Notes under the pieces: generated by a model
What the model saw: the letters and a program-made list of their open reading frames with translations, nothing else
What the model was told of the DNA's origin: nothing
Databases searched by the model: none
Part shown: positions 11,271 through 50,136 of the stretch, piece by piece
How the letters are laid out: every line of letters begins with the position of its first letter
Numbering within the stretch: the first letter of the stretch is position 1
Made by a program: the position numbers and the translations under genes
Source: a virus
Lineage: Duplodnaviria > Caudoviricetes
Virus record (IMG/VR): IMGVR_UViG_3300025327_001907
Span: 1-54,401 of that record
DNA: 54,401 nt
Direction: 5' to 3' (one strand)

Positions 11271-11279
11271 GATGTCCTC

Positions 11280-13571
11280 CTACCCGCGAGTTCTGAGTTC
11301 CTCCACGAAGTCTTCGGCGGTGTTCTTTCGAATAACCTCGGCGCGTTCGAGTGAGTCCATGAGGCGGTTAAATGTGGTGCTTCCCCAGCGCGAGAACCGC
11401 TTCTGTAGGTTCCGACGGCTGGCGGAGCCGTGTTCGCGGATGAACGCGAGAATCTCGCCCTCCATCTGGGCGTCATGAGACGCCAGCAAGGAATCCACGA
11501 GGCGCAGGCTGACGTTGGCGGTGAAGCGGGCGAGACAGAAACCAATCTCGACATCTTCCACGTCGATCGTGGTCTCCTCCTGGTTGGCGGATGTGACGGC
11601 GCAGGCGGCAAGGATGAGCGCGAATTTGCAGGCGTACTCAGTCGTGCGCTCCGTGGCGGCCAATTGGCTGACCGAGAATGTCGCCGACTTCGCTTCCCAT
11701 TCGTTGAACAGTTCCACCCAGCGCTGTTCCGCATCCTTCGTGAACGTGAAGTTGATCGGCTTCAGCGACCTCTCCGCGCCCTCGAAACGTTTGAACACGC
11801 GTTGCAGGAAGTCGATGAGTTTGTCAATCGCATCCTGATCCGGGACTTGGGGAAGGGCGATCGCCTCGCGCAGGGGGCCTTCTACGAATAGAAGACGGTT
11901 TCCGAACCCGCTGTGCCAGTCCTCTTCAGAGAAGTGTCGCCCGAGGAATTCGGGCGTACTGCCACTCAAGATGCTGACGTAGGGGTGAACGATGACGAGG
12001 GGTTTGTTCCTTGTTGGAAGGCGGAGCTGTTCCGGTGTGTTGAAGACGTTGAGCAGTGTGGGGATCATGGTGGAGCCGCCGGGGCCGCCACCCTTCGCCT
12101 TCGCCAGCAGCGTTGTGAATTCATCTTGAAGAATCAGCGCGCGGCGATGGAGCTTATCGTAGAGACGTTCCTCCCCGATGATCTCGTTGTTCTTGTCGCG
12201 CTTCCTGCTGGTTTGTCCCATCGCAGCGCGGATGACATCAAGCTCTTCAGGGTCAGCATCGGCGAACGCCAAATCCTGAAGCAGACCCTCGGCGCTTCCT
12301 CCTGCGGACGAGATCCGCAGGCTGCCGTCGATGTAGTGTGCAACCCCCTCAACCGCCCACGACATCGCCGTGGACTTCTTGGCGCGCCCGGTGGGGCCGA
12401 TCAGGCACGTGTACTGGTTCGGGAAAATCTGGCGCCCGTAGAAGGCAGCAATCCGGCGGCCGAGTACGGCCCCGATGACGTTCATGAGGGAGAAGTAGTG
12501 AAACTCGGCCGGCGCAGAAGTCGTGTGCTTCAGGGCCTCCGCGTATGTCAGAAAGGGGTCAACCCAACCATCTTCGGAGAGAGCGGACACCTCAGGAGCG
12601 GCAGGCCGCTCGCGCTCTGATTCCACACGCACATTGACGGTGTAGCTACGGCTCTCGCAAGTCGAGAGGATGGACTCAAACGCGTCTTTGTCGCCCCGAA
12701 CATGCACCCAGAGGTCACTCAAGTCGAAGCCCTTCTTCGACTTCGCCAACTCATCCGGGAGGTCGAGTATCGTGGCACCAATCCCTTCACGAGACAGAAA
12801 ATTCGCCAGCTTCGACGATCCTTCGCGGCCCGCAGCGTCCACGTCGTAGATGATGATGGCGTCCTTCACGCCCTTGTCGAGAAGGCGACTGACTGCGCGG
12901 GTACTCGGCAAACTGCCCTCGCCGGCCACGAAACTGATAGCTGGAAACCCGTTGAAGTGCATCACCCACGCGTCAGGCGGCCCGGCGCAGACGTAGACGG
13001 TCGGACTGTTCACCCGCCAGAGGTTGTAGACGAGATCCTTAGCAGCGAACTTCTCGCCCTTGAACGTCGGCTGCCATGCATACTTGGGGCGGTTGGTCTG
13101 ATCGGGTTGGAGCCAGCGTCCACGCTTGAAGATGCGGTGATCAGTGTGAAAGAGGCTGGTTTCATCCTCGATAGCCGGATCGACCCAGGGATCGCACCCG
13201 GCGATGGAATAGCCGCCAGGGCTCTTGCCCACGTCGAACTCATCAATGAGCCAGTCCCGCGGAAGTAACCGGCTCTCGGCGAGGTCACCAACCACGTCCT
13301 TTGGCTTGGTGCCGTGACGACGTGCGGCCGAGTCAAGCGCCAGTTCCAGCAACTCGTTCAAGTTGGAACCGACCTCGCATCCTGCCATGCACCGGATACC
13401 CCCATCCGTGACATTGATGCGCAAGGAGGGAGAACTGTCGGAGTGAAGAGGACAGTGAACGCTCAACCATCCTTCTTCGTTGGAGTCGAGATCGCAGTCG
13501 GACGTGTCGAGCCAGCGGAGATCGAGAATCTCTTGCCAGACTTCCGGCCAAGGTTTGAACTTCGGTGCCAC
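11280..13571 (-). CDS. primase-helicase (CHC2 Zn finger, TOPRIM, DUF3987-like P-loop ATPase, C-terminal wHTH)
   Basis: CPLHSDSSPS..CMAGC; YDVDAAG; GPTGRAKKST; ILQDEF; SGFGNR. Confidence 0.85.
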   Translation of the reverse strand: MAPKFKPWPEVWQEILDLRWLDTSDCDLDSNEEGWLSVHCPLHSDSSPSLRINVTDGGIRCMAGCEVGSNLNELLELALDSAARRHGTKPKDVVGDLAESRLLPRDWLIDEFDVGKSPGGYSIAGCDPWVDPAIEDETSLFHTDHRIFKRGRWLQPDQTNRPKYAWQPTFKGEKFAAKDLVYNLWRVNSPTVYVCAGPPDAWVMHFNGFPAISFVAGEGSLPSTRAVSRLLDKGVKDAIIIYDVDAAGREGSSKLANFLSREGIGATILDLPDELAKSKKGFDLSDLWVHVRGDKDAFESILSTCESRSYTVNVRVESERERPAAPEVSALSEDGWVDPFLTYAEALKHTTSAPAEFHYFSLMNVIGAVLGRRIAAFYGRQIFPNQYTCLIGPTGRAKKSTAMSWAVEGVAHYIDGSLRISSAGGSAEGLLQDLAFADADPEELDVIRAAMGQTSRKRDKNNEIIGEERLYDKLHRRALILQDEFTTLLAKAKGGGPGGSTMIPTLLNVFNTPEQLRLPTRNKPLVIVHPYVSILSGSTPEFLGRHFSEEDWHSGFGNRLLFVEGPLREAIALPQVPDQDAIDKLIDFLQRVFKRFEGAERSLKPINFTFTKDAEQRWVELFNEWEAKSATFSVSQLAATERTTEYACKFALILAACAVTSANQEETTIDVEDVEIGFCLARFTANVSLRLVDSLLASHDAQMEGEILAFIREHGSASRRNLQKRFSRWGSTTFNRLMDSLERAEVIRKNTAEDFVEELRTRG

Positions 13572-13579
13572 AGAGAGTC

Positions 13580-13840: not shown

Positions 13841-13841
13841 C

Positions 13842-16824: not shown

Positions 16825-18984
16825 TGCTTTCCAGCGGTACGTCGCCGAGTCCCGCGGCCCCAGCGTCAGGTTGGCCGCGCCAGGCAACCGCAGCGTAGAC
16901 CCGGCCAACACCGTCTCGTCTTGCAGCACGATGTTGTCGGCGCTGTCAACGTTCGTGATCGTCAAGAGCTGCCCGTCCGCCACGCCCGCCGCGATCGTCG
17001 GCGTCGAGGTCAGCGTCAGACTCGCGCCCGTCGAGTTGTCTACGTCTTGCAGCCGCGACGAGCTGCCGATCGTATTCCCCGCCGCGGCGAGCGTCTGCGC
17101 CGTTGGTGTGTACGCCATCTTCCCCGCGCTGCGGAACTCGATGTTCACGCTCGCCGCCGTGTACTTGGCAATGTCGATGCCGAGACACGTAGTAACGCCC
17201 GTCGCGTTGGTAGGCGCGGCGAGATAGATATCTCGCGCTATATTAACCGTGTAGGCCGAATGCCAACGCAGCGCACGGAAGTAGAGTCCGAAGTAGTTTG
17301 TAACAGCAACCACACTCGAACCCGAAGGGCGGCTGCCGCCTTCGATCTGAACGCCAACAACGTCGGTCACGGTTCCAACTGTGGCGGGCGACGAAACGTC
17401 TATCACCATCGGGGAGACCTGGATGCCGCGCAGGAGCGCTATCGCACCGTCCTGCCGGTCACGATTCTCGAAGAACCCGCCACTTATCGTGGCAAGAGTG
17501 ACGCCTGTAGGAGAAGCAAGCACCGCCTGGAAGTACAGTGAGCGGAACTCCGCCAACGAGTTTGAGGTGGGAGCGATTACTGGGGTGAAGAAGAACGGAA
17601 CCGTCGCGCCGGATGCCGTATTCGTGAACGTACCCGCCACGTTGAGGATAAGTCCCGTGAACTGTCCGAAAGTCGTATTACCGACAGACAGGCGCGTCGA
17701 TGTAAGATCGCCAGCCGCGATGTTGGCCGGTACCGAGAGGCTGCCGATCCAAGCGTAGCCCACCGTCCTCAACCACGTCGGGCCAAGGTGGGCGTACTCT
17801 GTGCCTAGAATGTCCATGAAGCGGAACTGGTTGCCGTAAGCATCGAGACGCTTGTGCTCGTCGGCCACATCGTTCGCTTCGAGAATCAGGATGCCGGGGT
17901 CGGTCTGGTCGCCGCAGGCGTAGAGCACACCGCGCTTCACTGTGGAGTCGGGGACGCCCGCGTACCAGTAGGCCGCGTTACCTACAGCCTCAATCGCGCC
18001 GTACTGCACGCTCCCAATCTGGAACTGGAAACGGTCAGCCACCTGGTTGTAGATCAGCGCGTCCCCGGTGTCGAAAGCGATGGAGGCAAGACTGGCCCCC
18101 TGCGTCAGCACAAAGCCGGAGCTGTTTACGACATAGAGAGCACCTACCGTGAGGTCGCCGGCCGCCACAGCCGCGGGTGCGGTAACCCCTCCGACCCGCA
18201 GATAGCCACCGACCCGCAAGCTGTCTGGAGTAGCGAACACGTCAGCCGCGGCTCTGTAGAGCTGTGCGTCCCCTCCAACCAGCAATCCCCCACCACTCCC
18301 CTGCGTTGGAAGGTTCAAACGTCCCGATGTTTCTTCAAAAACGAATAGGCTGGCCGATCCAAGAACCACGTTACCATCGAGTGCGGCACCGTTTCCACGA
18401 ATCGTAATTCCGTCACCCGAGACCGTACCGCCACGCAAGGTTTGTCCGCCGGCGCGGCCGGCCAGCAGAGCGTACTGGGCGTGGTCATCGTCGCTGAGAC
18501 CGCCGAGAGAGCCGTGGTCGTTTGACCAAGCATTGGCGGTTAGATAAGCACGGCGATCGCTGACAGACGTGATCGCACCGCTGGACGTAACGACGATTGC
18601 CAAAGGAACACCAGTAGCCGGGAATCCGACCGTACCGTCAACAACCGTGCCCGTATTGTCCACATAGACGTAGTTGGTCGAGTTGTCTGTCAGAGTAAGA
18701 GAGCCGGCGGCGATGTCGTAGAAAACACCCAGTACCCAGACTTGGACTTGTTCGAAGTCCACGTCCAGACCCGTATCGGCGGTGACGCGCCCCGATCTCG
18801 TGTGCTTCGATCCATACAGGACGTGGGCGCCTGCCTCGAAGACCGGGCTCGTGCCGCCACTTCCTGGGATGGCGACGATCTCCCGGCCGTCGAAGTTGCG
18901 GACGACAAGGCTCTTCAGCCGCTCGATCTCATCGAGAGCGTAGGCGACGAGGTTCTCGTGTCGCTGGGCCGGTTGCCGTCGCAT
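16783..18984 (-). CDS. tail fibre / receptor-binding protein
   Basis: Gly/Thr/Ala-rich beta character, DHGSLGGLSDDDHAQY motif; last gene of tail module. Confidence 0.75.
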   Translation of the reverse strand: MRRQPAQRHENLVAYALDEIERLKSLVVRNFDGREIVAIPGSGGTSPVFEAGAHVLYGSKHTRSGRVTADTGLDVDFEQVQVWVLGVFYDIAAGSLTLTDNSTNYVYVDNTGTVVDGTVGFPATGVPLAIVVTSSGAITSVSDRRAYLTANAWSNDHGSLGGLSDDDHAQYALLAGRAGGQTLRGGTVSGDGITIRGNGAALDGNVVLGSASLFVFEETSGRLNLPTQGSGGGLLVGGDAQLYRAAADVFATPDSLRVGGYLRVGGVTAPAAVAAGDLTVGALYVVNSSGFVLTQGASLASIAFDTGDALIYNQVADRFQFQIGSVQYGAIEAVGNAAYWYAGVPDSTVKRGVLYACGDQTDPGILILEANDVADEHKRLDAYGNQFRFMDILGTEYAHLGPTWLRTVGYAWIGSLSVPANIAAGDLTSTRLSVGNTTFGQFTGLILNVAGTFTNTASGATVPFFFTPVIAPTSNSLAEFRSLYFQAVLASPTGVTLATISGGFFENRDRQDGAIALLRGIQVSPMVIDVSSPATVGTVTDVVGVQIEGGSRPSGSSVVAVTNYFGLYFRALRWHSAYTVNIARDIYLAAPTNATGVTTCLGIDIAKYTAASVNIEFRSAGKMAYTPTAQTLAAAGNTIGSSSRLQDVDNSTGASLTLTSTPTIAAGVADGQLLTITNVDSADNIVLQDETVLAGSTLRLPGAANLTLGPRDSATYRWKASTSEWWCLGNVNL

Positions 18985-18987
18985 GTC

Positions 18988-21900
18988 CTAGTCCATTCCG
19001 ATGAAGGCCAATCCTTCAAAGGTCACTTCATTCCGGCTGTATCCCGTCACAGTCGCAAGGTTCTCGGTCAGGTCTTGCCAGACTCCAGTGGGAGAGGGCG
19101 CGCGCATGAAGTAGATGACGTTCACGTTGTTGCCAATCTCTCCCTCTCCGCCGTACAGGATGTCCACCCGCGGATCGTAAGCAAGGGCAGTGATGATGTT
19201 GACGTTGGGGGGTGCGGCGACCGATTCGAATGTCAGCCCGTTGTCACGTGTACGATTCACGACGTTCGAGCCGATGCGCTTATAGAAATACTGATGGAAT
19301 CCAGCATTCATTGGATTCTGCGCAGGCTCATTTGAGGATGTACTGTACTGAACGAAGAGTGTCCAAGTTGCCCCCATATCGTCACTGCGATAGACAAACA
19401 CGTCATTCCCGGCGACATTCTCAAACGCCAGCAGGAAGCGCCCATTCTGGGCCGCCCAAAGACACATGACGGTGACTTCTGCGCTCGCGCCGGGCTCGCT
19501 CCGCGTCCAGTTGCTCCCACCATCTGTCGATCGCAGAACGACGATGTTACTCGCGGCACCGCGCCAACCGAGAACCATGATGCGATTCGCGTTCGTCAAA
19601 TCGACCCGGATGCGGTTGTACCGCGTGAACTGGCCCCCGCTGACGGTCGTGTCGTTGTAGACCTCCGTCCAGTTGTCCCCCCCGTCCGTGGACTTGTAGA
19701 TACGGTGCGGTTGGGCATCTCCGCCTCCCCCAACAGCCCAGAGAGTCCCGTCGGGGCTCTGGGTGATGTCAGCGCAGAGATCGACTGTGTTATCGAGCCA
19801 GGTGATGCCAAGGTTGGTCGAACGCTGAAGTGTGCGCCAAGTATTGACACCGCCCGACTGCCGAACCCGAAAGACCGTGTTTCCCATGCCGGGAAAACGG
19901 AAGAGCTTCTGGCGACCATCGGACACGCCGGCGGTATCTGACTGCTTAATCCAACCGCTCCCCTTCTGTCGCACGACCGTGGCGGTTTGGTTCCCGGACG
20001 TATCGCGGACGAGCGCCATGATGTCGTGTTCCTCGGGTCGCATGTAGTCAATCGCGACTTCCCACCCCACGGCTCCGACTGGCCAGGTCGTGTTCCACGG
20101 CGCGCCCTTGGGGCGTAGGAACTCCCACGTCAGACCGTAGTCGATGGACTTGGCCAGACCCTCGTCTGTCGGACAGAGGAACAGATCGCGCCAGGCGCCC
20201 ACCTGGATGAGGCTGTGGGGCCGGTTTCCAGCCGTGCCGGGCAACACGTCAGTCAACGTCTCCCAGTTCCGTCCGTCCTGGCTGCGGTAGAAGTTCTTGT
20301 CGTTGGCCACGAAGCCGAACAACTGGAGCTGGTTGGCATTGGTTGCGACACCACGACCGTCTACGGCCGGCAACCCGATGGCATCCACCCAGCCGGTGGG
20401 CACCTCGTAGAAGTTGGGGTCGGCGTAGATGAATGGCGGATTGCGGCCCGCAAACACAAGTCCGAGGTCGCCGGCCGTCCTGTGGGAGACGACCGCATCG
20501 ATGACGGTGTGGGCAGGGTTTCCTGTGGAAGCCGCGGCGCCGTCTCCCGGCACGATGTCGGATGTCCAGACGCCGGGGCCGTCCGGGATGTAGTGTGTGA
20601 TGAACCAGGTGGCGGGATCGGTGCCCTTGCCTCCCATCACCCAGAGCCGGTTGACCGTCGGTTCCGAGACCAACATCTTCGAGCAAGGCGTCGGGTCGAT
20701 CGCCTCGGTGCGCCCGACGAGCTGTTCCAGTGAGTGGCGCTTCACACCCGGCAGGAACGTCTTGAGGTTCACGTACAACGCCCAGGTGGCCCCGAAGTCC
20801 TGCGAGCGATAGATCAGCCCGGTTGAGGTCAAGACCCACACCACGGCCGGTACGAGAGGCGTCTTGACGATATCGACGACGGGGTTGGCGCTACCCGCGT
20901 CCAACACAAGCGTGAGGCTTGCGTTGTGATCAGCGGAGCGATAGATTCGGCCGGTCGTGGTGCCAAACAACAGGATGGGTGGATCGACCAAGGTCGTATT
21001 GAAGATCAACTCGACCACACGGGCCTCGCCACTCGGGGTTGATCGGTCAACCCATGTCTGGGCGCCGTCCCGGCTATACATACAGGTGTTTCCGGCTGCA
21101 ACGGCGATCAGGGGGACATACATCGGCTCGCCAGTAGCAGCGCTCAAACTGATCGTCTTCGAGATGGCGCGTGTAAGACCGGAATCGTCCGTAACGGTGT
21201 GCGTGACGGTGATGCTGCTGTCTACAGCGGGGTCGTATGCTTTGGTGATGACCTGCTTGTTCGGCCCGCTGATGTTCATCGCGCCGCCGGAGTAGTCATC
21301 CTGCCACTGATAGTTCACGATGGAACCATCGAAGTCGTAGGACTGGTCAGTGAAGGTCACGACCGTCTGGAGTGCGTTTCCGATCAGCTCGCGCTCGATG
21401 ACGTAGGTGAAGTCCGGCTGCGGCGCAACGAGTCCACCCGTACCGGACTGGTCTCCACCGAACAGGCTGAGGCTGGTCTCTGCATTCCCCGGTGCCAGAG
21501 AGTGACGGTAGCCCTGAACCCACCAGTTTCCCGTCTTTCCCGTCACCTCGGTGTCGTTGAGAGTGATGGTCGTGCCAAGAGACATCCGAGGGTCGAACGG
21601 AACCGTCATCTCTACTGTGTCGAGGATGCGGTGGTAACGGTCGAGAAGACGCAATGCAACCGTGGACGCCTTCTCGTTCGTATCGATCAGGTCGTTCTGA
21701 TAGGTCATGGCGTACAGCTCGGGATCGCCGACCGCGAGTGAATCGTCGTAGGTCAGGGCCTCCGCGCTAATCTGTGTCTCGGTTGCATTTCCCTCGGCGT
21801 CAGCGCCAATGATGACGGCGCCCTTGACGTAGACCTTCTTCTTCACCTGGTCTTCGTCCTCGTCATCGCCAATGTCGAGGATGCGGAGCTGAGGATACGT

Positions 21901-23040
21901 ACGTACGACCGCCTCGAACGCGGTGTCGCCGGCCACAGCCGACCAGGTGGTGCCATTGAATACGGAGGCCGCCCCATCGGCGTATCCCGGCGAAGAAGTG
22001 TCGAGACCAATCTCATAGTGGTTAGCACCATTGATGGCGCCTGTTCGAGAGATCACGAGCTGATAGCCGTTTCCCGTGCGAACGGTCGAATGCGTCAGGA
22101 AGATGAATGTCACCTTCTGGTATGCGCCCGTAAGGATGGAGCCGGGGAAGTCGAGAGCACCTCCAAGCACCTGCGCGGTCGGAAGGCCGCTGGAGGTTCC
22201 GCGAAGTTCGAAGTGGATGTAATCTGTGGGCGTCCCGACCTTGCGGAGCCAGACAGAGACCGCGACAAGACGCCCATTGGCCGAAACCTGGAAGCGTTGA
22301 CCGCGGGCCGTGTCGTTCGTCACGTCACCGATCTTGCCGGCCGCATCGATGTTCGAGTCACTGTACGAGACGGTGCTATCCGTCGTCTCGTCTCCGCCGG
22401 CGGTGTTCGTTCCATAGGCACGGAAGCCATTTGGCGCCGGTGCCTCCAGAAGGGGGCGAATGATGAGTGCCCCCGAGGGTGTCTCGTAGACACGGTGTCC
22501 GTCGATGTCCGCGACCTTGCGGATCATGTCTGATGGCGGCATTGAATCCATGACGGCCGTCTTCGCGGAGCCGAGAATGAGAGAGCTGAGAGACGCGTCC
22601 AGCGAATAGTTGGTGAACGGCGGGTTCAGGTCGTTTAGGATGTCCTCGATCACATCATCGGCGGCCGTATTCGTCCACGACTTCGCGGCGACTCGGTACG
22701 GGCGGGTGAGGACGGCCGTGGATCCCACGCAGTCGATCACATCCCCATCCGGGGTATGGCGCCGCTTCTTCACAGCCCCCGTGAACTGCCGGGGTGTCGA
22801 TCCGCTATAGCCGGCATCGATCCAAACGTCCATGTCGCGTTCAATCCAGGACGGGATGGAGACGAGGTTAATCGTAGCCGTCGAGGGCAACTGGTCGATC
22901 TGGAAGTCGATGTCACAGCCCTTGATGTTGCCCGCATCAGTGCTAAGACCGCTCGCGACCTGGATGCCGTTGATGTAAACGACAACCTCCGCCTTGCGGT
23001 CGATTGCGAAGATACCGTCATCAATGAAGGGGTTGGGCAC
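18988..23040 (-). CDS. tail tip/hub protein with PKD-like domain and BNR (Asp-box) beta-propellers
   Basis: Follows Dit; about 10 SxDxGxTW-like repeats; PKD-like FTDQSYDFDGSIVNYQW. Confidence 0.8.
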   Translation of the reverse strand: MPNPFIDDGIFAIDRKAEVVVYINGIQVASGLSTDAGNIKGCDIDFQIDQLPSTATINLVSIPSWIERDMDVWIDAGYSGSTPRQFTGAVKKRRHTPDGDVIDCVGSTAVLTRPYRVAAKSWTNTAADDVIEDILNDLNPPFTNYSLDASLSSLILGSAKTAVMDSMPPSDMIRKVADIDGHRVYETPSGALIIRPLLEAPAPNGFRAYGTNTAGGDETTDSTVSYSDSNIDAAGKIGDVTNDTARGQRFQVSANGRLVAVSVWLRKVGTPTDYIHFELRGTSSGLPTAQVLGGALDFPGSILTGAYQKVTFIFLTHSTVRTGNGYQLVISRTGAINGANHYEIGLDTSSPGYADGAASVFNGTTWSAVAGDTAFEAVVRTYPQLRILDIGDDEDEDQVKKKVYVKGAVIIGADAEGNATETQISAEALTYDDSLAVGDPELYAMTYQNDLIDTNEKASTVALRLLDRYHRILDTVEMTVPFDPRMSLGTTITLNDTEVTGKTGNWWVQGYRHSLAPGNAETSLSLFGGDQSGTGGLVAPQPDFTYVIERELIGNALQTVVTFTDQSYDFDGSIVNYQWQDDYSGGAMNISGPNKQVITKAYDPAVDSSITVTHTVTDDSGLTRAISKTISLSAATGEPMYVPLIAVAAGNTCMYSRDGAQTWVDRSTPSGEARVVELIFNTTLVDPPILLFGTTTGRIYRSADHNASLTLVLDAGSANPVVDIVKTPLVPAVVWVLTSTGLIYRSQDFGATWALYVNLKTFLPGVKRHSLEQLVGRTEAIDPTPCSKMLVSEPTVNRLWVMGGKGTDPATWFITHYIPDGPGVWTSDIVPGDGAAASTGNPAHTVIDAVVSHRTAGDLGLVFAGRNPPFIYADPNFYEVPTGWVDAIGLPAVDGRGVATNANQLQLFGFVANDKNFYRSQDGRNWETLTDVLPGTAGNRPHSLIQVGAWRDLFLCPTDEGLAKSIDYGLTWEFLRPKGAPWNTTWPVGAVGWEVAIDYMRPEEHDIMALVRDTSGNQTATVVRQKGSGWIKQSDTAGVSDGRQKLFRFPGMGNTVFRVRQSGGVNTWRTLQRSTNLGITWLDNTVDLCADITQSPDGTLWAVGGGGDAQPHRIYKSTDGGDNWTEVYNDTTVSGGQFTRYNRIRVDLTNANRIMVLGWRGAASNIVVLRSTDGGSNWTRSEPGASAEVTVMCLWAAQNGRFLLAFENVAGNDVFVYRSDDMGATWTLFVQYSTSSNEPAQNPMNAGFHQYFYKRIGSNVVNRTRDNGLTFESVAAPPNVNIITALAYDPRVDILYGGEGEIGNNVNVIYFMRAPSPTGVWQDLTENLATVTGYSRNEVTFEGLAFIGMD

Positions 23041-23419: not shown

Positions 23420-26302
23420 CTAAACTCGCGGAATACCGACACCGAGCGTTCCGAAGCGGGGTCGGACGAGCTTCGCGCGCGCCGCGGCTTCGTCCATCTT
23501 CGCGTCGATGATCTTGTGGACGGCGGCCTTGATGGCGCCGAAGTCCATCCCCATGCCGTCGATGTTCACGTCGATGTCGATGTTAGGCAGGCCGCGACCC
23601 CCGCCGCCGGCGGTGCGCATGGCCTGACCAACGTCTGGGTTGCGAATCACGTCAGAACCGCGTGGCAAGCGGATCAGCTCTGGCCCTTTTTCGCCGGCCA
23701 ATGCGAGACCGCCGGCGAAATTAGAGACACCGCGGGCGAATCCCACCAGACCCTTTCCAGCCTTGATCCCCCCACCAATGGCGCCCGTGATCTTCCCGGC
23801 ACCGGGGATCTTCTCGATCCAGCCCACGAGTTCTTTGATCTTGTCGATGATCTCCTGCACCGGCCCGACAATGGATTCCTTGATCGAAGTCCAGATGGTG
23901 CCCGCCACATCCTTCAGCGCGTTCCATTGTTCGGAAGCCACAGCTTTGATGAACGCCCACGCGTACCCGAGCGCGTCTCGGATCAGTCCGACCTTGAGGA
24001 GAACGTCCGTTTTGATGAACTCCCAGATGTCGGAGGCGAGCTGCTTGATCCCCTCCCACGCCTCGCCCCAGTCCCCGCGGATCGCGGCCATGACGATCTT
24101 GATGATGTCCCGGATCGCGTTGATCGCAAACGTGATCTGGTTCTTGATCATCTCGAACTGGAATTTGAAGAGCGTGACGAGCCACGGCAGCTTCTCGTTG
24201 AAGAAGTTGAGAATCGAATTCCAGACTTCGAGGGTCTTGGCCTTGATCTCGTCCCAGTGGCGTGACAGCCAACCGATCGCGATGATGATCGCGATGATGG
24301 CGGCCGGGATCGGGTTCAGATAGATGAGCAAGATGCCCAGCGCGATGATGATTGCGAAGAGGAGCAGTTTATGATCGGCCAGCCACTTCGCGAAGTCCGC
24401 GAGCGCCGGGATGACGTACATGACGAGCACGCCACCGATGACGCGAAGGCCCTCGACGAACGACTTCCAAAGCTCCTGGAAGGCGTCTGACCGGATGATG
24501 GCCATGAGTGCCTGGAAGGCAAAGACGACCTGATCCTTGATGGCGGCGCCGAACTCGAAGAGCCACTGGACGATAGCGGCGATGCGGTCTCCGGCACCCT
24601 CACCAAATACGGCCTTGAGGGCTGTTTCCAGCTCCCAGAAAAAGGCGTTCAGGTCGCCACGGAGCAGGGCCTTACCGGCTCGTTCGAAGAAGATCAGGGA
24701 GATGCGAAGCTCTTCGAGCTTCTGACGGATGTCCTTGAGCGGGATCTCCAACCCAAGGAAGTTGTGGAGAAGCTGCTTGAGCCCAGCCGCCACTGCCGAG
24801 AGATCCCCTGCGCGGAAGCCCTTGATGATAAAGTCGATGTCCTGGAAGCCGAGCCGGATGTTATCGAGAATTCCCAGCTTGTCGGCGATCATTACAAAGA
24901 AGTCGCCGATCTTACGCCCGAGATCACCCCACGTCATGTTCAGCTTGTCCATGACAAACAGCAGCGTCCCGAAGGTCACGGCGAAGATGAGGAAGGCAGG
25001 ATTGAGCGCAGACAATGCAAAACTGAGGGCGCCCATCGTCACCACGAGACCGATGAGACCCCCGACCGCGTTCCGCATCATGCGCACGAGAGGGTTATCG
25101 GATGCGATGAACTTGCTGATGCCGTCCAGTAACTTTCCGAGGATGCTGGATGCCCCACCACCGGCATCAGTCAGTGCGAGGAACTGCGACCCGAGGCGTT
25201 GGATCTTGAAGCGCAGCGCCTCCGACCGGATGGCGAATGCCTGGGCCAGCGCGCCGCCGTTTTCGCTGGCCATGTTCATCTGGCCGAGGATGTTCACCAG
25301 CTCCTTACCGTCGTCGGTCAGCAGAACAGTGGCGCCGCGGAACCCGCGCACCTCGTCGAAAATCTTGCCCATCGCCTCGGCGCCGCCGTTCGTCTTCTGC
25401 TGAATCTCCAACATGGCGCCGACGAGGCCCTTCGACGCGAGGGTCTCGGCACTCAGCTCGATACCCAAGGCTGCCGCAGACTTTCGCGCCTTATCGCTAG
25501 GCTTGATGAACTGGAGCATGATGCGGTTCAGCGACGTGGCCGCCTCAGCCGCGGGAATACCGCGCTTCGTAAGAACGGCCATGACCGTGCCCAGCTCTTC
25601 CAACGAGACATTGGCGATGGCCGCCGTACCGATGAAATCACCGATGTTCTGGGCGAGGTCTTCGAAGGAGAGGACACCGACATCAACCGTCTTGAAGAGG
25701 ATGTCTGCGACGTGCCGAGCCTGCTCCGCCGGCAACTGGAAGGCGTTTAGAACAGACACAATGGCCTTACCGGCCGTGGCGGCGTCCGTGAAGCCCGTGG
25801 TGGCTGCCTCGGCTGCCACGCGGGCGATATCGAGGGCCTGCTGGACGTTGAAGCCCGACTGAACGATGTCGAACATCGCGTCCGCGATATTGGCCGCACT
25901 CTTACCGGCCAGATCCCCCTTGCGCGCCAGATCGAGGAGCTGGGAGCGCAGTTCCGAAATGGTCTCGTTGGAGTCCTTGGTGATCGACTGAACCTTGCGT
26001 AGAGCTTCATCGAAATCGAGGGCGTGACCGATCACGCCGGTCATGATGTTGTTGATGGCGATCAGGGCGTTGAAGTACCCGGCGAAGAACACCGTCTGCT
26101 TCAACACGCCTCCACCAAGGATGTTGAAGGCGCCGGTGAGCTTGCCGGCCTTCGACGCGACGTTCGTCAGGCCGTTCCCGACGTTCTTCGCAGCGTTGCC
26201 GATGCGCTTGAAAGTGGAGTCCGCGGTGCGCGCGGCACGGTTGAGCCCGGTATCCCAGCTCTTGAGATCAACGAGGAGTTGAAGGACGACGCTCCGGGCC
26301 AT
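23420..26302 (-). CDS. tape measure protein (TP901-type)
   Basis: 960 aa helical, ADILFKT..G, hydrophobic segments, Trp-periodic repeats, GEKGPELI. Confidence 0.93.
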   Translation of the reverse strand: MARSVVLQLLVDLKSWDTGLNRAARTADSTFKRIGNAAKNVGNGLTNVASKAGKLTGAFNILGGGVLKQTVFFAGYFNALIAINNIMTGVIGHALDFDEALRKVQSITKDSNETISELRSQLLDLARKGDLAGKSAANIADAMFDIVQSGFNVQQALDIARVAAEAATTGFTDAATAGKAIVSVLNAFQLPAEQARHVADILFKTVDVGVLSFEDLAQNIGDFIGTAAIANVSLEELGTVMAVLTKRGIPAAEAATSLNRIMLQFIKPSDKARKSAAALGIELSAETLASKGLVGAMLEIQQKTNGGAEAMGKIFDEVRGFRGATVLLTDDGKELVNILGQMNMASENGGALAQAFAIRSEALRFKIQRLGSQFLALTDAGGGASSILGKLLDGISKFIASDNPLVRMMRNAVGGLIGLVVTMGALSFALSALNPAFLIFAVTFGTLLFVMDKLNMTWGDLGRKIGDFFVMIADKLGILDNIRLGFQDIDFIIKGFRAGDLSAVAAGLKQLLHNFLGLEIPLKDIRQKLEELRISLIFFERAGKALLRGDLNAFFWELETALKAVFGEGAGDRIAAIVQWLFEFGAAIKDQVVFAFQALMAIIRSDAFQELWKSFVEGLRVIGGVLVMYVIPALADFAKWLADHKLLLFAIIIALGILLIYLNPIPAAIIAIIIAIGWLSRHWDEIKAKTLEVWNSILNFFNEKLPWLVTLFKFQFEMIKNQITFAINAIRDIIKIVMAAIRGDWGEAWEGIKQLASDIWEFIKTDVLLKVGLIRDALGYAWAFIKAVASEQWNALKDVAGTIWTSIKESIVGPVQEIIDKIKELVGWIEKIPGAGKITGAIGGGIKAGKGLVGFARGVSNFAGGLALAGEKGPELIRLPRGSDVIRNPDVGQAMRTAGGGGRGLPNIDIDVNIDGMGMDFGAIKAAVHKIIDAKMDEAAARAKLVRPRFGTLGVGIPRV

Positions 26303-39782: not shown

Positions 39783-39935
39783 TGCCTCCTCCCGTTCCAG
39801 ACGTGCGCGCTTGGCCCGCTGACGTTTGGTGAGTTGGCGGATGACCGGCGCGAACACGCGTCGCAAGTGTCTACGGCGGGCGCGGGTCGATGTGTCCGAG
39901 TGTGGGGTGCCTCCGGGTACGCGTCTTGGTTTCAT
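39765..39935 (-). CDS. small Arg-rich protein (56 aa)
   Basis: ATGA overlap with TerL stop; GGAGAGG RBS. Confidence 0.5.
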   Translation of the reverse strand: MKPRRVPGGTPHSDTSTRARRRHLRRVFAPVIRQLTKRQRAKRARLEREEAGGTTR

Positions 39936-41455
39936 GATAGACCTCTCCAAGCAACGCTGAACTGCGCGAGGTCGCGCGCCTCCTTCGATTGGCGGACGCC
40001 GTATCGCATCCCATCCATCAAGTGGTTGTCGAAGTCCACTGGCACGTCGCTGGTGGTTGTGCCGTATTCGTCCGTCGGGTAGGTGTAGTGTGACCGCTCC
40101 CACTCCCAGTAGGGTAGATTGTTGAACACCACCAAACCGCCATTGCCGCCGGAACGTAGAGCGGCGCCCGTCTCCAGCAAGCCCACCGCCTTCCCTTTAT
40201 CCGGCTTGAACACAAGAGAGTTCGGAAACCGCTGCTCCAGCCAGTCATGAAGCCATGCACCCGCCGGGTCGTAGAAGATCCGGTCGATGCGCTCCGGCTC
40301 ACCACGGGTTGTCCAGTGACCGGCGGAGATCAATGCACCGTCGGGGCCAAAGATGTCCGGCGCCCACTCTTCAAAGACGCTGGCGTCCACGATTTCCTGC
40401 GCCAGCTCTTCCGGTGACCTCGTGACAACCTTCACCTTCTGCCATTGGGAAATCTTCGGTCGGCAGTGCTGGTAATACTCCCGGTACAAGTACCAGGTGT
40501 GCGGCGGCACCGGGTCAATGGCGATCCAGACCGCGGCGAAAGCGGACGGGCCACCGGAAGATGGGTCGATGGACAGGATGCGCATCCAGTGCTTGGGAAT
40601 CGTGAAGGGATCGCAGAACGTGACCTGTGGGTACACGAGTCCAACCGGACGCTCAAACATCGCGTTGAACCGTGTGTTGATGTACTCAGGTGGCAGGACG
40701 CGTTTCTGATCTTCCAGCAACTTCGGGGCGAAGTACGGATTGACCAAAGACGGATAACGCACGACGAGCATGTGTTCGTTGGTCGGATCTTTCGCTTGGT
40801 CGAGATACTCCTTCAACCACTTCCCCTCGATATACGGCGTCGTGGTCATGAGTGATTGGGCACCTTCAGCCATGCGGGAGATTGCCTCAAAGTACGGCCC
40901 CTCCGTCCTGAAGAGTCCACCCTCGTCGATCCAGATGGCGTGCATGTGCGCACCCTGAAGGCGATGCTTATGTGTGGCCGAGCCCGTGTAGATGTAGGCT
41001 GGAATACCGACGCGCGTGAGATCGATGGTCAGCAGGCGGGCGTTGAAGATTTCGTCACTCCATCCGAACACGTCTTCAAAGAACTGCATCATGCGGCCGA
41101 CCCCGACCTCGCGACGCTGGATGTCACCGAGCGTCGGGCCGACAATGCCAAACGAGTTCGTGGCGTTCGGATACCGCTTGACCGCGCGTTGAATGTGCCG
41201 CCACATCCAGAGCGGCCCCATGTAAGATTTTCCGCCTTGCGTCCCAGCGATCATGAAGAGATGGCGCTGTCGGGCATACCAAATCGGGAGTTGGCCGGCG
41301 TGGAGGCGCTTCGGGCTCTCGTTGTCGTACGGGACTGGGTATAGCTCGTCGCCGATCTTCCGTTTCCTCGCGCGTACGGTGATGAAGTTGCCTTCGCGCT
41401 TGTAGATGGGCGGATAGGCAGCGGTCAGTTCATCGACCGTGCGTGGGGTTGTCAT
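39932..41455 (-). CDS. terL: terminase large subunit
   Basis: AGTQGGKS, IWIDEG, MTTTP, SIDP, LYREYY, DNHLMDGMRY. Confidence 0.93.
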   Translation of the reverse strand: MTTPRTVDELTAAYPPIYKREGNFITVRARKRKIGDELYPVPYDNESPKRLHAGQLPIWYARQRHLFMIAGTQGGKSYMGPLWMWRHIQRAVKRYPNATNSFGIVGPTLGDIQRREVGVGRMMQFFEDVFGWSDEIFNARLLTIDLTRVGIPAYIYTGSATHKHRLQGAHMHAIWIDEGGLFRTEGPYFEAISRMAEGAQSLMTTTPYIEGKWLKEYLDQAKDPTNEHMLVVRYPSLVNPYFAPKLLEDQKRVLPPEYINTRFNAMFERPVGLVYPQVTFCDPFTIPKHWMRILSIDPSSGGPSAFAAVWIAIDPVPPHTWYLYREYYQHCRPKISQWQKVKVVTRSPEELAQEIVDASVFEEWAPDIFGPDGALISAGHWTTRGEPERIDRIFYDPAGAWLHDWLEQRFPNSLVFKPDKGKAVGLLETGAALRSGGNGGLVVFNNLPYWEWERSHYTYPTDEYGTTTSDVPVDFDNHLMDGMRYGVRQSKEARDLAQFSVAWRGLS

Positions 41456-46692: not shown

Positions 46693-46968
46693 CTACTTAG
46701 TCGGCGCGACCTTCTCGACGACCGCCTTAACGCCGGCGCTGTAGAGGCCGCTTGCCATGAGGCCGGAGACCACGCTGATCGTCGCGAACTCCTGCCACCC
46801 GTTCACAGGCGACCAGTTCATCGTGATGGCCGTCCAGACGAAGCCGGCGGCGATGGAGATGACGGCGTTGAAGCGCGCCGGGATCTCGGGGACGGTGCGC
46901 TTGACGACCTCGGTCAGTGCGATGATGAACGGCATCGAGATGGCGGCTGCGGCAATCAGGGGTTCCAT
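46693..46968 (-). CDS. holin
   Basis: 91 aa, 2-3 TM, LTEVVKR, GLMASGLYS; AAGGAGG RBS. Confidence 0.82.
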   Translation of the reverse strand: MEPLIAAAAISMPFIIALTEVVKRTVPEIPARFNAVISIAAGFVWTAITMNWSPVNGWQEFATISVVSGLMASGLYSAGVKAVVEKVAPTK

Positions 46969-47066
46969 GACATCCTCCTTGGCTCTCACCAGCGTAGGCC
47001 CACGAAAAATATCGCGCAAGGTGACGTGCCCCTGAGGATCGATCCGGGTTTTCACGAACGGCCGTT

Positions 47067-47609
47067 CTAACAGCGTTGGAATTTCCCGTCCCGGAAGACG
47101 ATCACACCCCACCCCTGGAGTTCATCTAATGCATCGTTGAAGACAGCTCTGCCGGATCGAGCGAGACGCCGTTGTAAGTCGCGCCGCGAAAGGGCGCCGT
47201 GCATAACAAGGGCGCGAAGAATGCTGTATGCCGTCGTCGCTTTGCCGCCGCGAGGAAGTCGCGCCGAGGAAACCGCGTCTTCAAGTACCTCTCGGGCCGT
47301 GTCCTGTTGACGCTGATAATTCGCCAGATCGGCATGGTCGAACCATTCCTCGATACCGCTGGCTTGGTGTAAATCCCGCAGCAGCTCAGGAGTCTCCTGA
47401 AGCCACTCGCCCATCATCCGGGAGTGTTTTGCAAGGAACTGGCGCTCCAATGCCCGTACGCGGTCGGTTGAACCCGGCACGGAGATGATGGGCTCCAGCG
47501 GGTAGGGGTTGCCCGTTTGGAGAGACTGGACGCGTGCGCGAAGGCCGGTATCGGTTGTAATGCCGACCTTCACGTGACCATGCCCATCCGAGAGCGTGTA
47601 GAAGAGCAT
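47067..47609 (-). CDS. GIY-YIG/T5orf172-domain protein with C-terminal winged helix
   Basis: VKVGIT..RVQSLQTGNP..LE..GEW; C-terminus similar to the primase-helicase wHTH. Confidence 0.82.
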   Translation of the reverse strand: MLFYTLSDGHGHVKVGITTDTGLRARVQSLQTGNPYPLEPIISVPGSTDRVRALERQFLAKHSRMMGEWLQETPELLRDLHQASGIEEWFDHADLANYQRQQDTAREVLEDAVSSARLPRGGKATTAYSILRALVMHGALSRRDLQRRLARSGRAVFNDALDELQGWGVIVFRDGKFQRC

Positions 47610-47615
47610 GGGGGC

Positions 47616-47637
47616 AGTCTATAGGGTGTTATGAAAT
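47616..47637 (-). promoter_or_regulatory. class I promoter (ATTT-N12-TAGACT), leaderless
   Basis: ATG 6 nt after the -10; overlaps left arm of the inverted repeat. Confidence 0.62.
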
Positions 47638-47840
47638 TTCGCCATGTCGGCTGTTTGTTGGCGCACACAGCATACGTAGATCACGCGTAATTGTAAAGAG
47701 ATCCTATCATTTACCGGGTATGCACGTGAGAATCGGATCTGCTTTATAGGCCGACAAACAACAGACCCTTGAAGAATTCATAACAGGTTCCACTCGCCAA
47801 CCTGCCAACAACGCCGACATCTCAGAACTGCATAACACCC
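47624..47840. repeat. tripartite inverted repeat around an AT-richer core; candidate replication origin
   Basis: GGGTGTTATG-N10-ATGTCGGC-N3-TTGTTGGC ... GCCAACAA-N1-GCCGACAT-N10-CATAACACCC. Confidence 0.7.
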
Positions 47841-47874
47841 CGCGTGGAAACGACACTTAGCCCGAGGCTAAATA

Positions 47875-48417
47875 TCAGGGTACGAGCAAAATCGCGCTGC
47901 CTCGGCGCATCCCCATCCCCTCGAAGAAGGCGGCCCGGCCCGGATCGAGCGGGAACCGCGGGTCGTCGGCGAGGAACCGGCCGCAGGCTTCGGCGAAGTC
48001 CTCAAGCAGCCAGAGTGCCGTGTCCCGGCGTCCCCATGCCGGGAAGCCACCATCCGCGGCCGCCACCACGGGTAGGTAGGCCGCGGCCTCGGTGGTCGTG
48101 AGCCACTCGTGGAGATCGACGGCACTCGGGGGCGGGCCGCCCGGCTGGGGCTCGGCGCCGGTCTCGTTCAGGATGACCTGGTGCTGGTGGCCGTGGCAGG
48201 TTTCATGGGCCGCCACCTTGAGTGGCTGGCCCGGCACGAGCACGATCTCGCGCGTCGGCGCCCAGTAGAAGTTAGCCGGCCCTCCGAAGGGACATTGGCC
48301 GTCCGAGGTGCATCCGTTGGGGGATTTGTACACGTGCAGCCCGGTCGGGGTCACGAAGGGCGTGCAAGCGAGGGCGGCCGCGGCGGCCAGCAGGACGGCG
48401 AGGAGTAAGTGCTTCAT
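47875..48417 (-). CDS. lipoprotein with HExxH zinc-metallopeptidase motif
   Basis: MKHLLLAVLLAAAAALAC lipobox; AAHETCH; LEDFAE. Confidence 0.8.
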   Translation of the reverse strand: MKHLLLAVLLAAAAALACTPFVTPTGLHVYKSPNGCTSDGQCPFGGPANFYWAPTREIVLVPGQPLKVAAHETCHGHQHQVILNETGAEPQPGGPPPSAVDLHEWLTTTEAAAYLPVVAAADGGFPAWGRRDTALWLLEDFAEACGRFLADDPRFPLDPGRAAFFEGMGMRRGSAILLVP

Positions 48418-48530: not shown

Positions 48531-48977
48531 GTGACACCAGAAGAGACGGCTTGGGTGGCAGGACTTCTTGAAGGGGAGGGCTGCTTTCGTATTGGCGCAC
48601 GCGGCTACCTCGTCGTTGTTTGCTCAATGACCGACGAGGATGTAGTGCGCCGACTCCATCATCTCACCGGCATCGGATCAGTTCATCGAAAGAAGCCAGG
48701 GCGACCCGGACACAAACCTTTATGGCGCTGGGAACTCGGCAATCGGCGCGAGGTCGTCTCACTAATCAACGCCTTGCGGCCGCTCATGGGAAAACGTCGA
48801 GGCGAGAAGATCGACGCGATGCTGAGGTTTCACTCAGAACACCCGTTGCGTGTGCGGGAGCGCGGGTTTCCTGAGCACGGCACACGCTCAATGTACGTCC
48901 GCTACGGCTGTCGGTGTGACCCGTGTAGCACTGCTAACCGAACCTATAAACAGTCTCTCAAGGAGTGCGCAGCATGA
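48531..48977 (+). CDS. LAGLIDADG homing endonuclease with C-terminal HG..Y..GCRCxxC motif
   Basis: AWVAGLLEGEGCF, SMTDEDVV, RPLMGKRR. Confidence 0.87.
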   Translation: MTPEETAWVAGLLEGEGCFRIGARGYLVVVCSMTDEDVVRRLHHLTGIGSVHRKKPGRPGHKPLWRWELGNRREVVSLINALRPLMGKRRGEKIDAMLRFHSEHPLRVRERGFPEHGTRSMYVRYGCRCDPCSTANRTYKQSLKECAA

Positions 48978-49519
48978 CCGCCATCGTCGGATACATCGAC
49001 CAGCAAACCAAGAAGGTGTACATCGGCGGGGACTCCGCCGGCGTTAGCGGTTACGACCTTCACGTCCGCGCCGACCAGAAGGTGTTCGTGAACGACGGCT
49101 TTGCAATGGGGTTCACGACCTCGTTTCGCATGGGTCAACTCCTCCGCTACGCGTTCGAGCCGCCGCTTCACAAGGACGACGCCGACCTGATGGAGTACAT
49201 GGTCACGGACTTCGTGGACACGCTGCGCAAGTGCTTGAAAGAGGGAGGGTTCGCGGAGAAGAAGTCCGAGCGTGAGACGGGGGGTACGTTCCTCGTCGGC
49301 CACCGCGGGCGCCTGTTCTATATCGAGGACGATTACCAGGTCGGCGAGATGGTCGTGCCGTACTCGGCCGTCGGCTGTGGCGACTCCTACGCGCTCGGTG
49401 CGCTCCGCATCTTGCATGAGACCGCCTACACGCCCGAGGAGAAGGTGCGGCGCGCGCTCGAAGCAGCCGAAACATACTCCAACGGCGTGCGCGGGCCATT
49501 CCACATCGTTTCGGTCTAG
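48974..49519 (+). CDS. HslV/proteasome-beta-like Ntn hydrolase
   Basis: MTAIVG (N-terminal Thr), GGDSA, QKVF, AVGCGDSYALGAL. Confidence 0.8.
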   Translation: MTAIVGYIDQQTKKVYIGGDSAGVSGYDLHVRADQKVFVNDGFAMGFTTSFRMGQLLRYAFEPPLHKDDADLMEYMVTDFVDTLRKCLKEGGFAEKKSERETGGTFLVGHRGRLFYIEDDYQVGEMVVPYSAVGCGDSYALGALRILHETAYTPEEKVRRALEAAETYSNGVRGPFHIVSV

Positions 49520-49533
49520 CACAGGAGCATCCC

Positions 49534-50136
49534 ATGCGTCCGCCCACTGTCATGTTCGACATCGACGCCGTGATCGGCAATTTCAACGCGCCGGCAACCA
49601 AGCTCGCGGAACGCCTCTTCCCGCAGATCCGCGGTCACTTGCCGCGCTCTCCGCATGAGGCGAAAACCTGGATCTGGCAGCACTCCGTTCCCACATGGAC
49701 TGACGAGATGGATCGTGAGCTGTGGAAGGCGATCCGGGCCGACGCCATGTTCTGGTTCGATCTACCGTGTCTTCTCACGCACGACGAGGTTTTCCGCATT
49801 CGCGCACTGGGGGACGTGTACTACGTCACCAACCGTTCGGGCGACGGCGTGAAAGACGTAACCACCGCGTGGCTTCGTCATCACGGTCTCGGGCATATGT
49901 CGCATCGCCTGATCTGTTCGCGCGAGCCCAAGGACGAGATCGCAGCGGAGATCCACGCCGAGTACGCGATTGAGGACAACGGCGACAACGCGCTGTTGCT
50001 CCTACGTGCCGGGGTGCATACCGCCGTCCTTCGGTATCCATACAATGATGGTCACCACCCAGCCATCCGCGACAACGGCGGCGCCGTTGTCCATTCGGTC
50101 TCGGAATTCCTCGACCTGATCCCGGAGACGCGATGA
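49534..50136 (+). CDS. second HAD 5'-nucleotidase-like protein
   Basis: FDIDAV, YVTNR, TTAWL, IEDN, YPYN. Confidence 0.78.
   Translation: MRPPTVMFDIDAVIGNFNAPATKLAERLFPQIRGHLPRSPHEAKTWIWQHSVPTWTDEMDRELWKAIRADAMFWFDLPCLLTHDEVFRIRALGDVYYVTNRSGDGVKDVTTAWLRHHGLGHMSHRLICSREPKDEIAAEIHAEYAIEDNGDNALLLLRAGVHTAVLRYPYNDGHHPAIRDNGGAVVHSVSEFLDLIPETR

Follow-up and report, generated by a model that had tools for sequence, protein, structure and literature searches.

A T5orf172 family protein with a degenerate catalytic core and a helicase-type winged helix next to a box-bearing region in a soil phage

Introduction

What role can be expected of a phage protein that joins a homing-endonuclease-type domain to a winged helix resembling that of the primase-helicase of the same phage? 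This question is raised by P0002, a protein of 180 aa encoded on the minus strand at 47067..47609 (stop codon included) of the 54,401-bp stretch of viral DNA analysed here, which is called the window throughout. P0002 belongs to the T5orf172 family, has a catalytic core that is degenerate and ends in a helicase-type winged helix. The original prediction regarded it as a nuclease-like protein that is targeted to the same DNA boxes as the replicative helicase at a candidate origin.

The P0002 gene and its genomic setting

The virus record that makes up the window is classified as a provirus, with an estimated completeness of 45%, and the phage looks like a siphovirus. Almost every gene between 47.6 kb and 1 kb lies on the minus strand. 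PHROG matches identify a holin (46693-47112), a large terminase (39932-41455), a tape measure protein (23420-26302) and a replication block consisting of a DNA helicase (14459-16144), a UvsX-like recombinase, an SSB, SbcCD-like nucleases and a dNMP kinase. A LAGLIDADG-like gene of homing-endonuclease type (48531-48977) is located 920 bp from the P0002 gene. The window contains no tRNA and no Rfam family at gathering score, and its GC skew tracks gene direction. The stretch is found in soil and groundwater metagenomes. No close cultured phage was detected: tblastn with the helicase produced one weak match, to EBPR podovirus 3, and tblastn with the terminase produced none.

As for the start of P0002, the N-termini of its homologues align with it residue 1 to residue 1. 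Shine-Dalgarno motifs precede several genes of the window; the ATG of P0002 has no such motif before it. Soil-metagenome contigs of about 99% identity cover the gene, and the reading frame is unbroken in these independent soil samples. The protein collection contains P0003, a 98%-identical twin of P0002. A word-index search for full-length relatives recovered this twin only, and P0003 is also the sole match at E<=1e-10 in a HMMER search of 1.8e9 representatives. Scans with P0002 of viral and metagenome contigs, and a scan of genome contigs with the helicase alignment, gave no relative and no match, respectively, in collections from which the phage's own or near-identical records may be missing.

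P0002 consists of three parts, all encoded on the minus strand. Homologues, AlphaFold2 (AF2) modelling and structure matches place a T5orf172/MUG113 domain of the GIY-YIG clan, with a degenerate active site, at residues 1-85 (47355..47609). A long linker helix follows at residues 92-114 (47268..47336), as seen in the AF2 secondary structure with a pLDDT of 65-75. Residues 122-179 (47073..47246) form a winged helix-turn-helix, as indicated by sequence, profile and AF2 evidence. In the AF2 model, the winged helix is composed of H1 (122-136), H2 (142-151), H3 (155-166) and a wing (169-179), with a pLDDT of 59-68 only. The model was built from an alignment instead of the single sequence, from which AF2 gave a poor result (pLDDT 44). 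Foldseek with the whole P0002 model returned no match at E<=0.001.

The T5orf172 domain and its active site

P0002 narrowly misses both Pfam cut-offs of its family, with 19.7 bits for T5orf172 (PF10544; cut-off 20) and 19.2 bits for MUG113 (PF13455; cut-off 22.3). A phmmer search (HMMER) of 1.8 billion representatives yielded 750 homologues at E<=1e-3, all of which match via the N-terminal part of P0002. Among the best 150 of these 750, the match begins within the first 14 residues and mostly ends around residue 90, and only P0003 matches from end to end. MUG113 was recognised in 148 and T5orf172 in 115 of the 150 scanned homologues (E<=1e-3). The two in which MUG113 is missed are P0002 and P0003 themselves, and P0002 is thus an outlier of its family. 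Because P0002 has 750 homologues and 148 of the 150 scanned match MUG113, the GIY-YIG/T5orf172 label of the original prediction is secured despite the Pfam scores.

The predicted structure agrees with this assignment. The pLDDT is 86-94 over residues 1-80, and strands at residues 2-7, 12-18 and 39-45 together with helices at 23-32 and 48-61 (pLDDT about 90) make up a GIY-YIG-type fold. In a structure search across representatives (VIA-align), GIY-YIG nucleases head the matches to residues 1-90, with modest Z scores of 4.8-6.5: At-HIGLE (6.5), Slx1 (6.2 and 5.6), EF2693 (5.8), the N-domain of a plant Grx (5.0), PD-T4-3 (5.0) and I-TevI (4.8). Some of these proteins we take to be of the GIY-YIG class. 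For others the class follows PMC8263062.

The active site departs from that of the family. Two independent family alignments show no variation at K14, G16, R26, E68 and W69, and conservation of at least 90% at E51 and H55. P0002 keeps K14, G16, R26, G67, E68 and W69 and lacks the core-motif residues Y3, E51 and H55, so that the GIY-YIG core motif is incomplete. The active-site columns were counted in a 153-sequence L-INS-i alignment including Odn, the T5orf172 nuclease of phage ICP1; most seeming exceptions in the first family alignment were register shifts. Codon 3 of P0002 (47601..47603, minus strand), at the position of the "GIY" Tyr, encodes Phe, where 127 of the 153 members and Odn have Tyr. 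Codon 51 (47457..47459, minus strand) encodes Val in place of a Glu present in 150 of 153 members and in Odn (E180), and codon 55 (47445..47447, minus strand) encodes Glu in place of a His present in 143 of 153 members and in Odn (H184). The twin P0003 shares F3, V51 and E55.

The loss of these residues can be read against an active enzyme. The residues that Odn, translated from the ICP1 record, has in common with the family consensus are precisely Y, K-x-G, R, G, E and H, and P0002 lacks three of the seven residues that link this active nuclease to the family. Odn E180 aligns to column 51 of the family alignment. In the sections of PMC8263062 on this residue, Barth et al. picked E180 as the catalytic Glu of Odn through an alignment with solved GIY-YIG enzymes, and section 5 reports that the E180A mutation abolishes Odn activity against PLE. 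Because the Glu equivalent to Odn E180 and the family Tyr and His are gone, the nuclease function of P0002, which the original prediction took as its starting point, is doubtful. To judge from these substitutions, P0002 has likely lost nuclease activity. In the model, a single helical turn separates E55 from position 51, and this residue might in principle stand in, perhaps partly, for the lost Glu.

Kinship of the P0002 and primase-helicase winged helices

The primase-helicase P0001 (763 aa; 11280..13571, minus strand) comprises a zinc ribbon, a Toprim domain, a DUF3987 helicase domain and a C-terminal winged helix. In Pfam it matches DUF3987 (1.6e-16), Toprim_2 (23.4 bits) and, weakly, the DnaG zinc ribbon; it also matches PHROG helicase and primase families, and has 11 orthologues of 41-46% identity. 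DUF3987 proteins are helicases; AgaPH, a protein with a small C-terminal domain, unwinds DNA 5' to 3' (PMC11724360). In the P4 alpha protein, a C-terminal winged helix is located behind the helicase, according to the part of PMC2777425 concerned with it. By analogy, the C-terminal winged helix of P0001 is presumed to bind DNA.

The winged helix of P0001 (residues 706-750; 11322..11456, minus strand) is a paralogue of the P0002 C-terminus. BLASTP between the two proteins gives a single gapless HSP between P0002 130-170 and P0001 707-747, with 18 of 41 residues identical and 25 of 41 positive (35.8 bits, pairwise E 7e-7). The gapless C-terminal match reported in the original prediction, which placed the two genes about 36 kb apart, is thereby reproduced; they are about 34-36 kb apart. 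The P0001 winged helix is likewise recovered when P0002 is searched against all six frames of the record (E 4.9e-5).

The original prediction was to fall if this similarity proved no higher than that to generic winged helices. It is higher. In phmmer searches with the P0002 winged helix, P0001 reaches 19.9 bits and none of the 11 orthologous primase-helicases exceeds 6.0 bits, and P0002 reaches at most 14.2 bits among the 177,635 PDB sequences, where its winged-helix part has no meaningful match. In the reverse direction, the P0001 winged helix finds its nearest orthologue at 46.6 bits and P0002 second at 22.5 bits, with the other ten orthologues below. A profile of the 11 orthologous C-termini, from which P0001 was left out, gives P0002 9.9 bits, above every other protein compared and above the maximum of 7.0 in 2000 shuffles. 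Consistently, when 13 helicase C-termini, among them that of P0001, are compared with P0002 by hhalign, the probability is 87.9% (E 3.2e-6) over 45 columns. The two winged helices are therefore specifically related, beyond a generic likeness.

Relationships outside this pair are distant. Pfam matches below threshold are to HVO_A0114 for the P0002 C-terminus (22.6 bits) and to FtsK_gamma (17.1) and MarR (14.7) for P0001. Because these weak matches go to different winged-helix families, they indicate a winged-helix fold without one Pfam family joining both proteins. The helicase C-terminal profile has no meaningful match in the PDB, and the P4 alpha domain is not detected by sequence. The nearest ESM Atlas cluster to P0002 119-180 is, as a lead only, a 728-aa Prim-Pol/DUF3987 protein (TM 0.86). 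Among longer proteins, a word search, which is weak evidence, found no closer source of the winged helix at E<=10.

The helicase C-terminal family is characterised by the motif (K/R)RxLQ(Q/R)xFxR...L..LL..LE...V(I/V), and SRR-LQ-R and G..(T/V)FN are common to P0002, P0001 and the nearest relatives of P0001. Helix 2, with SRR-LQ-R, is the best-conserved part between the two winged helices. Of the 12 residues of the predicted recognition helix (P0002 155-166), only 4 are the same in P0001, and several exposed positions differ, for example D159 of P0002, which is Arg in P0001. Because conservation is highest in helix 2 and the recognition helix differs at exposed positions, equal DNA specificity is not implied, and the idea that both domains are directed to the same boxes is weakened. 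A complex prediction of P0001 690-763 with P0002 110-180, run without controls, scored 0.00 and counts neither way.

The upstream region

A 265-bp non-coding intergenic region (47610..47874) lies upstream of P0002. It includes the lowest-GC 150-bp stretch of the window (47626-47775; 45.3% against about 61%) and has a DNA fold z of -2.77. The inverted repeat proposed beside the gene is present, with arms of 28 nt at 47624-47651 and 47813-47840 that are 79% complementary. The region contains three bipartite boxes. The left copy, GCCGACA-N11-CATAACA, is inside the left arm (47627..47651, minus strand); the middle copy has a longer spacer, GCCGACA-N22-CATAACA (47750..47785, plus strand); and the right copy, again with N11, is inside the right arm (47813..47837, plus strand). 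No further box exists in the window. The expected number by chance is 0.01 and none of 100 shuffles reaches three, figures that are overstated because the pattern was derived post hoc from the same region. Three of the four window copies of CATAACA lie in the upstream region; GCCGACA alone is common. Among strain variants in soil metagenomes (about 99% identity), 47610-47806 is unchanged, and four substitutions and one deletion fall within 47807-47849, around the right copy, and leave the core heptamers untouched.

A dispersed MITE-like element and an RNA element were considered for this region and rejected: the terminal-repeat pattern has no match in viral contigs, the box pattern occurs at its own locus only among 25 loci, and no Rfam family reaches its gathering score.

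A leaderless promoter overlapping the left arm had been proposed for P0002. The gene lacks a Shine-Dalgarno motif, and directly next to the left arm the minus strand reads TATAGA (47623-47618); the sigma-70 scan chose TTTACA-17-TATGCT at 47697-47669 instead, a match on the minus strand aimed at P0002 that is weak (one found against 0.5 expected). As for the candidate origin, the region is indeed structured, AT-rich and box-bearing. With an iteron-type origin in mind, it has the lowest GC of the window and three boxes, but nothing ties these to an initiator or to DnaA, and the boxes recur neither elsewhere in the window nor at the relatives' loci examined. A search at 10800-11400 and 13500-13900, beside the helicase gene, found no convincing iterons or similar boxes. 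Because the boxes have no link to the helicase and GC skew follows gene direction, the candidate origin is a guess. We consider it unlikely that 47610-47874 is a replication origin, and a promoter/operator in front of the genes that run leftward accounts for the region no less well.

Related loci

If the two winged helices worked as a pair, they might be expected to occur together in related phages, as the original prediction anticipated. They do not in the relatives examined, none of which is a genome carrying both a P0002-type gene and the helicase. A P0002 orthologue or a second winged-helix copy is present in none of three related virus records (helicase 42% identity; 13, 50 and 82% complete), and neither the holin nor the upstream 180-aa protein was found in them. 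In these three distant relatives without P0002, the neighbourhoods are not collinear with the window. Neither a P0002-type gene nor a second copy of the winged helix lies within 10 kb of the helicase at 15 metagenome loci. No joint across the P0002 gene is seen in the strain-level contigs, which are short.

A different association was found instead of P0002 itself. Directly after the helicase stop codon, a T5orf172-only ORF of 110-129 aa is present at three (L005, L016 and L023) of the 12 distinct loci that cover the helicase 3' end. These ORFs have an intact E..H motif, with 48-53% mutual identity and 25-32% identity to P0002. T5orf172 genes are recurrent neighbours of the winged-helix end of the helicase and therefore provide a possible route for module capture. 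HTH-type domains of many kinds are found in the T5orf172 relatives of P0002. The label "DnaD-like helicase loader" on a mycobacteriophage T5orf172 gene is an automatic one for a 139-aa protein and was not taken as evidence.

Possible roles of P0002

The reading we prefer, tentatively and at somewhat less than an even chance, is that P0002 is a domesticated DNA-binding regulator that acts on the upstream boxes. P0002 is a chimeric member of the T5orf172 homing-endonuclease family with a GIY-YIG-type domain, a long helical linker and a winged helix that is a paralogue of the winged helix of the phage's own Toprim-DUF3987 primase-helicase. Such a protein would cut DNA poorly or no longer and would act as a sequence-specific DNA binder derived from a homing endonuclease. 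Its likeliest sites are the three GCCGACA...CATAACA boxes just upstream of its own start codon, a candidate link for the winged helix drawn from proximity. Upon binding to these boxes, P0002 would regulate its own promoter and the long series of leftward genes of which it is the first. If the primase-helicase also recognises the boxes, the region would be an origin, at which P0002 would act as a competitor or a helper.

Against domestication, E55 lies one turn from the lost Glu at position 51 and R26, K14, G16 and E68 are intact, so that the active site might be remodelled. The same residues speak for an unlikely yet serious alternative, in which P0002 resembles Odn as an active nuclease or nickase directed at origins, its winged helix guiding a remodelled but functional GIY-YIG centre to origin-type sites. 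A rival phage or satellite with a related primase-helicase could be attacked at its origin, or P0002 could act at the phage's own origin and there start recombination-dependent or rolling-circle replication. The two-part logic would be that described for Odn and for the T5orf172-RepA_N proteins of E. coli phages in parts of PMC8263062 and bioRxiv 10.1101/2023.03.23.533998, and the T5orf172-only ORFs with intact E..H after the helicase stop at 3 of 12 loci repeat the link between domain and helicase. However, such a nuclease would have to work with Val in place of the Glu equivalent to Odn E180 and without the Tyr and His; the 44% identity and the differing recognition helices do not imply a specificity shared with P0001; and no protein with a closer winged helix, as the initiator of a target replicon might have, was found, the word-search part of which is weak evidence. 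It is rather unlikely that P0002 is an ordinary or decaying free-standing homing-endonuclease gene, with a helicase-type winged helix by chance and no role in replication, and that the upstream region is its promoter plus the terminator of the preceding gene. The layout of nuclease, linker and DNA-binding domain, the LAGLIDADG-like gene 920 bp away, the restriction to one lineage with absence from the three related virus records, the missing Shine-Dalgarno motif and the degenerate active site, which fits decay, would all suit such a gene. Yet independent soil samples of about 99% identity preserve the open frame, the better match to P0001 than to its orthologues points to a specific origin of the domain, and three boxes exceed a plain promoter.

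A regulatory role can also be imagined through protein contact. P4 carries a second small protein, Cnr, related to the origin-binding winged helix of alpha, and Cnr reportedly pairs with the winged helix of alpha and alters its DNA binding. By this precedent, P0002 would be a copy-number regulator whose winged helix pairs with that of the helicase and alters DNA binding by the helicase. Such a regulator is favoured by the fact that one phage encodes two proteins with paralogous winged helices and by the C-terminal winged helix of P4 alpha (PMC2777425, in part). We regard it as improbable: P4 alpha and Cnr show no sequence relation to P0001 or P0002, and the T5orf172 domain would be left unexplained.

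There is also a bolder reading, which we think improbable: the DNA module of the phage's own helicase was set on a remodelled GIY-YIG domain, both proteins act at a three-box origin, and P0002 is a switch. P0002 would then nick or occupy the origin and thereby shut off initiation by the helicase, or turn the phage to recombination-dependent or rolling-circle replication, and the T5orf172-only ORFs found at the helicase stop of related phages would represent this partnership in an unfused state. If the boxes serve both proteins, they would mark the origin of this phage group.

Comparison with known systems

[quoted passage not shown] However, I-TevI and the Seg proteins keep the catalytic Tyr and Glu, both of which P0002 has lost, and their DNA-binding modules are of other types. 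P4 alpha (origin-binding winged helix, PDB 1ka8) and P0001 both combine a primase, a helicase and a C-terminal winged helix, as far as described in the section of PMC2777425 concerned, but the helicase of P4 alpha belongs to SF3 and that of P0001 to DUF3987, and no sequence similarity was detected between them. For a protein of homing-endonuclease lineage that binds DNA and does not cut it, the precedent is CapR of PLE, which acts as a repressor (Netter et al. 2021, PMC8096241, in the part on CapR). CapR consists of the zinc-finger DNA-binding part alone, without T5orf172, whereas P0002 retains a degenerate T5orf172 domain.

The closest counterpart is Odn (gp88 of ICP1). According to the relevant sections of Barth, Nguyen and Seed 2021 (PMC8263062), its T5orf172 nuclease domain is joined to a RepA_N domain, a copy of the one that binds the origin of the PLE satellite, and experiments show that Odn cuts the PLE origin at iterons. 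Odn and P0002 are both phage-encoded and derived from homing endonucleases, and P0002 too has an initiator-homologous DNA-binding domain, the origin binding of the helicase domain itself being presumed. The two differ in the position and source of this domain, which is N-terminal, RepA_N and taken from the satellite in Odn but C-terminal and of the phage's own primase-helicase winged-helix type in P0002. They also differ at the active site: Y, R, E180 and H184 of Odn correspond to F, R, V and E in P0002, which thus has Val at the catalytic Glu.

Odn is not alone. T5orf172 homing endonucleases are modular and their DNA-binding domains are swapped by recombination, and T5orf172 with RepA_N is also found in the E. 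coli phages Inny, Muut and Mt1B1_P17 and in gp5 of ICP1, as stated in passages of bioRxiv 10.1101/2023.03.23.533998. A T5orf172 domain with an initiator-type DNA-binding domain thus recurs across phages, as in P0002; in these passages, the domains match satellite RepA, and a DUF3987-helicase winged helix is not reported. The parts of the literature consulted yielded no T5orf172 protein with such a winged helix. The view of P0002 as an undescribed system therefore has to be narrowed: chimeras of T5orf172 with initiator DNA-binding domains are already described, and P0002 is a variant of the Odn type.

From that type, P0002 differs in three respects, namely a winged helix of primase-helicase type, a nearest known donor in the same phage and a core without the catalytic Glu, Tyr and His. 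The Odn principle, in which the DNA-binding domain of a replication initiator gives a homing-endonuclease domain a new target, is known for satellite RepA_N domains in phages of Vibrio and E. coli; it would extend to a DUF3987 primase-helicase winged helix in an uncultured soil phage, with the phage's own replication gene as the apparent donor. The loss of the catalytic residues suggests a further step, from a nuclease towards a pure DNA binder.

Genes and sequence variation around P0002

Strain variants from other soil metagenomes carry four substitutions and a 1-nt deletion within 43 bp (47807-47849) around the right copy (47813-47837, plus strand) of the bipartite boxes upstream of P0002, the 180-aa protein with a degenerate T5orf172 domain and a C-terminal winged helix. 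The same variants show no changes in the 197 bp to the left of this cluster (47610-47806). The gene upstream of this region (47875-48417, minus strand) has a product of 180 aa that contains an HETCHGHQH motif as well as a lipoprotein-like signal (MKHLLLAVLLAAAAALAC). This product matches no Pfam or PHROG family, and no counterpart was found in the three related virus records with orthologous primase-helicases. A second homing-endonuclease-like gene of the window, which is LAGLIDADG-like and encodes 148 aa (48531-48977, plus strand), lies 920 bp from P0002 on the opposite strand. Its product matches phrog_5046 at 6e-24, a family labelled as HNH endonuclease, and scores 18.7 bits against PF14528, which is sub-threshold. 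The rightward gene set also includes adjacent genes for an HslV-like peptidase (phrog_1040, 2.2e-22) and an NT5C-type 5'-nucleotidase (23.6 bits, slightly below the cut-off) at 48965-50136 on the plus strand.

Other genes and repeats

Two minus-strand genes encoding proteins of 1350 aa (18988-23040) and 733 aa (16783-18984), with no or nearly no PHROG match, lie in the interval that separates the tape measure gene from the replication block. Within the latter, a GTCGAA hexamer repeated 9.7 times is followed by 2.1 copies of a 30-bp unit at 6613-6728. These repeats fall inside an ORF at 6315-7166 (minus strand), and could either code for a repetitive peptide or act as a cis site.

T5orf172-only ORFs beside the primase-helicase gene

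In three of 12 related loci, the start of a T5orf172-only ORF is located a few bases or less from the stop codon of the primase-helicase gene (L005:12320-12652, L016:12321-12707 and L023:1316-1657; also L006:1408-1740, minus strand). In the window, the primase-helicase stop codon is followed by a gap of about 390 bp (10892-11279) that lacks a convincing gene. This gap is in the same place as the T5orf172-only ORF of the three relatives, and a search for traces of such a gene in it gave nothing at E<=0.001. The ORFs at the primase-helicase stop codon encode 110-129 aa, lack a DNA-binding domain and retain an intact E..H motif, and the three share 48-53% pairwise identity. Rather than being a typical homing endonuclease, the product of the T5orf172-only ORF may act with the primase-helicase as its conserved partner.
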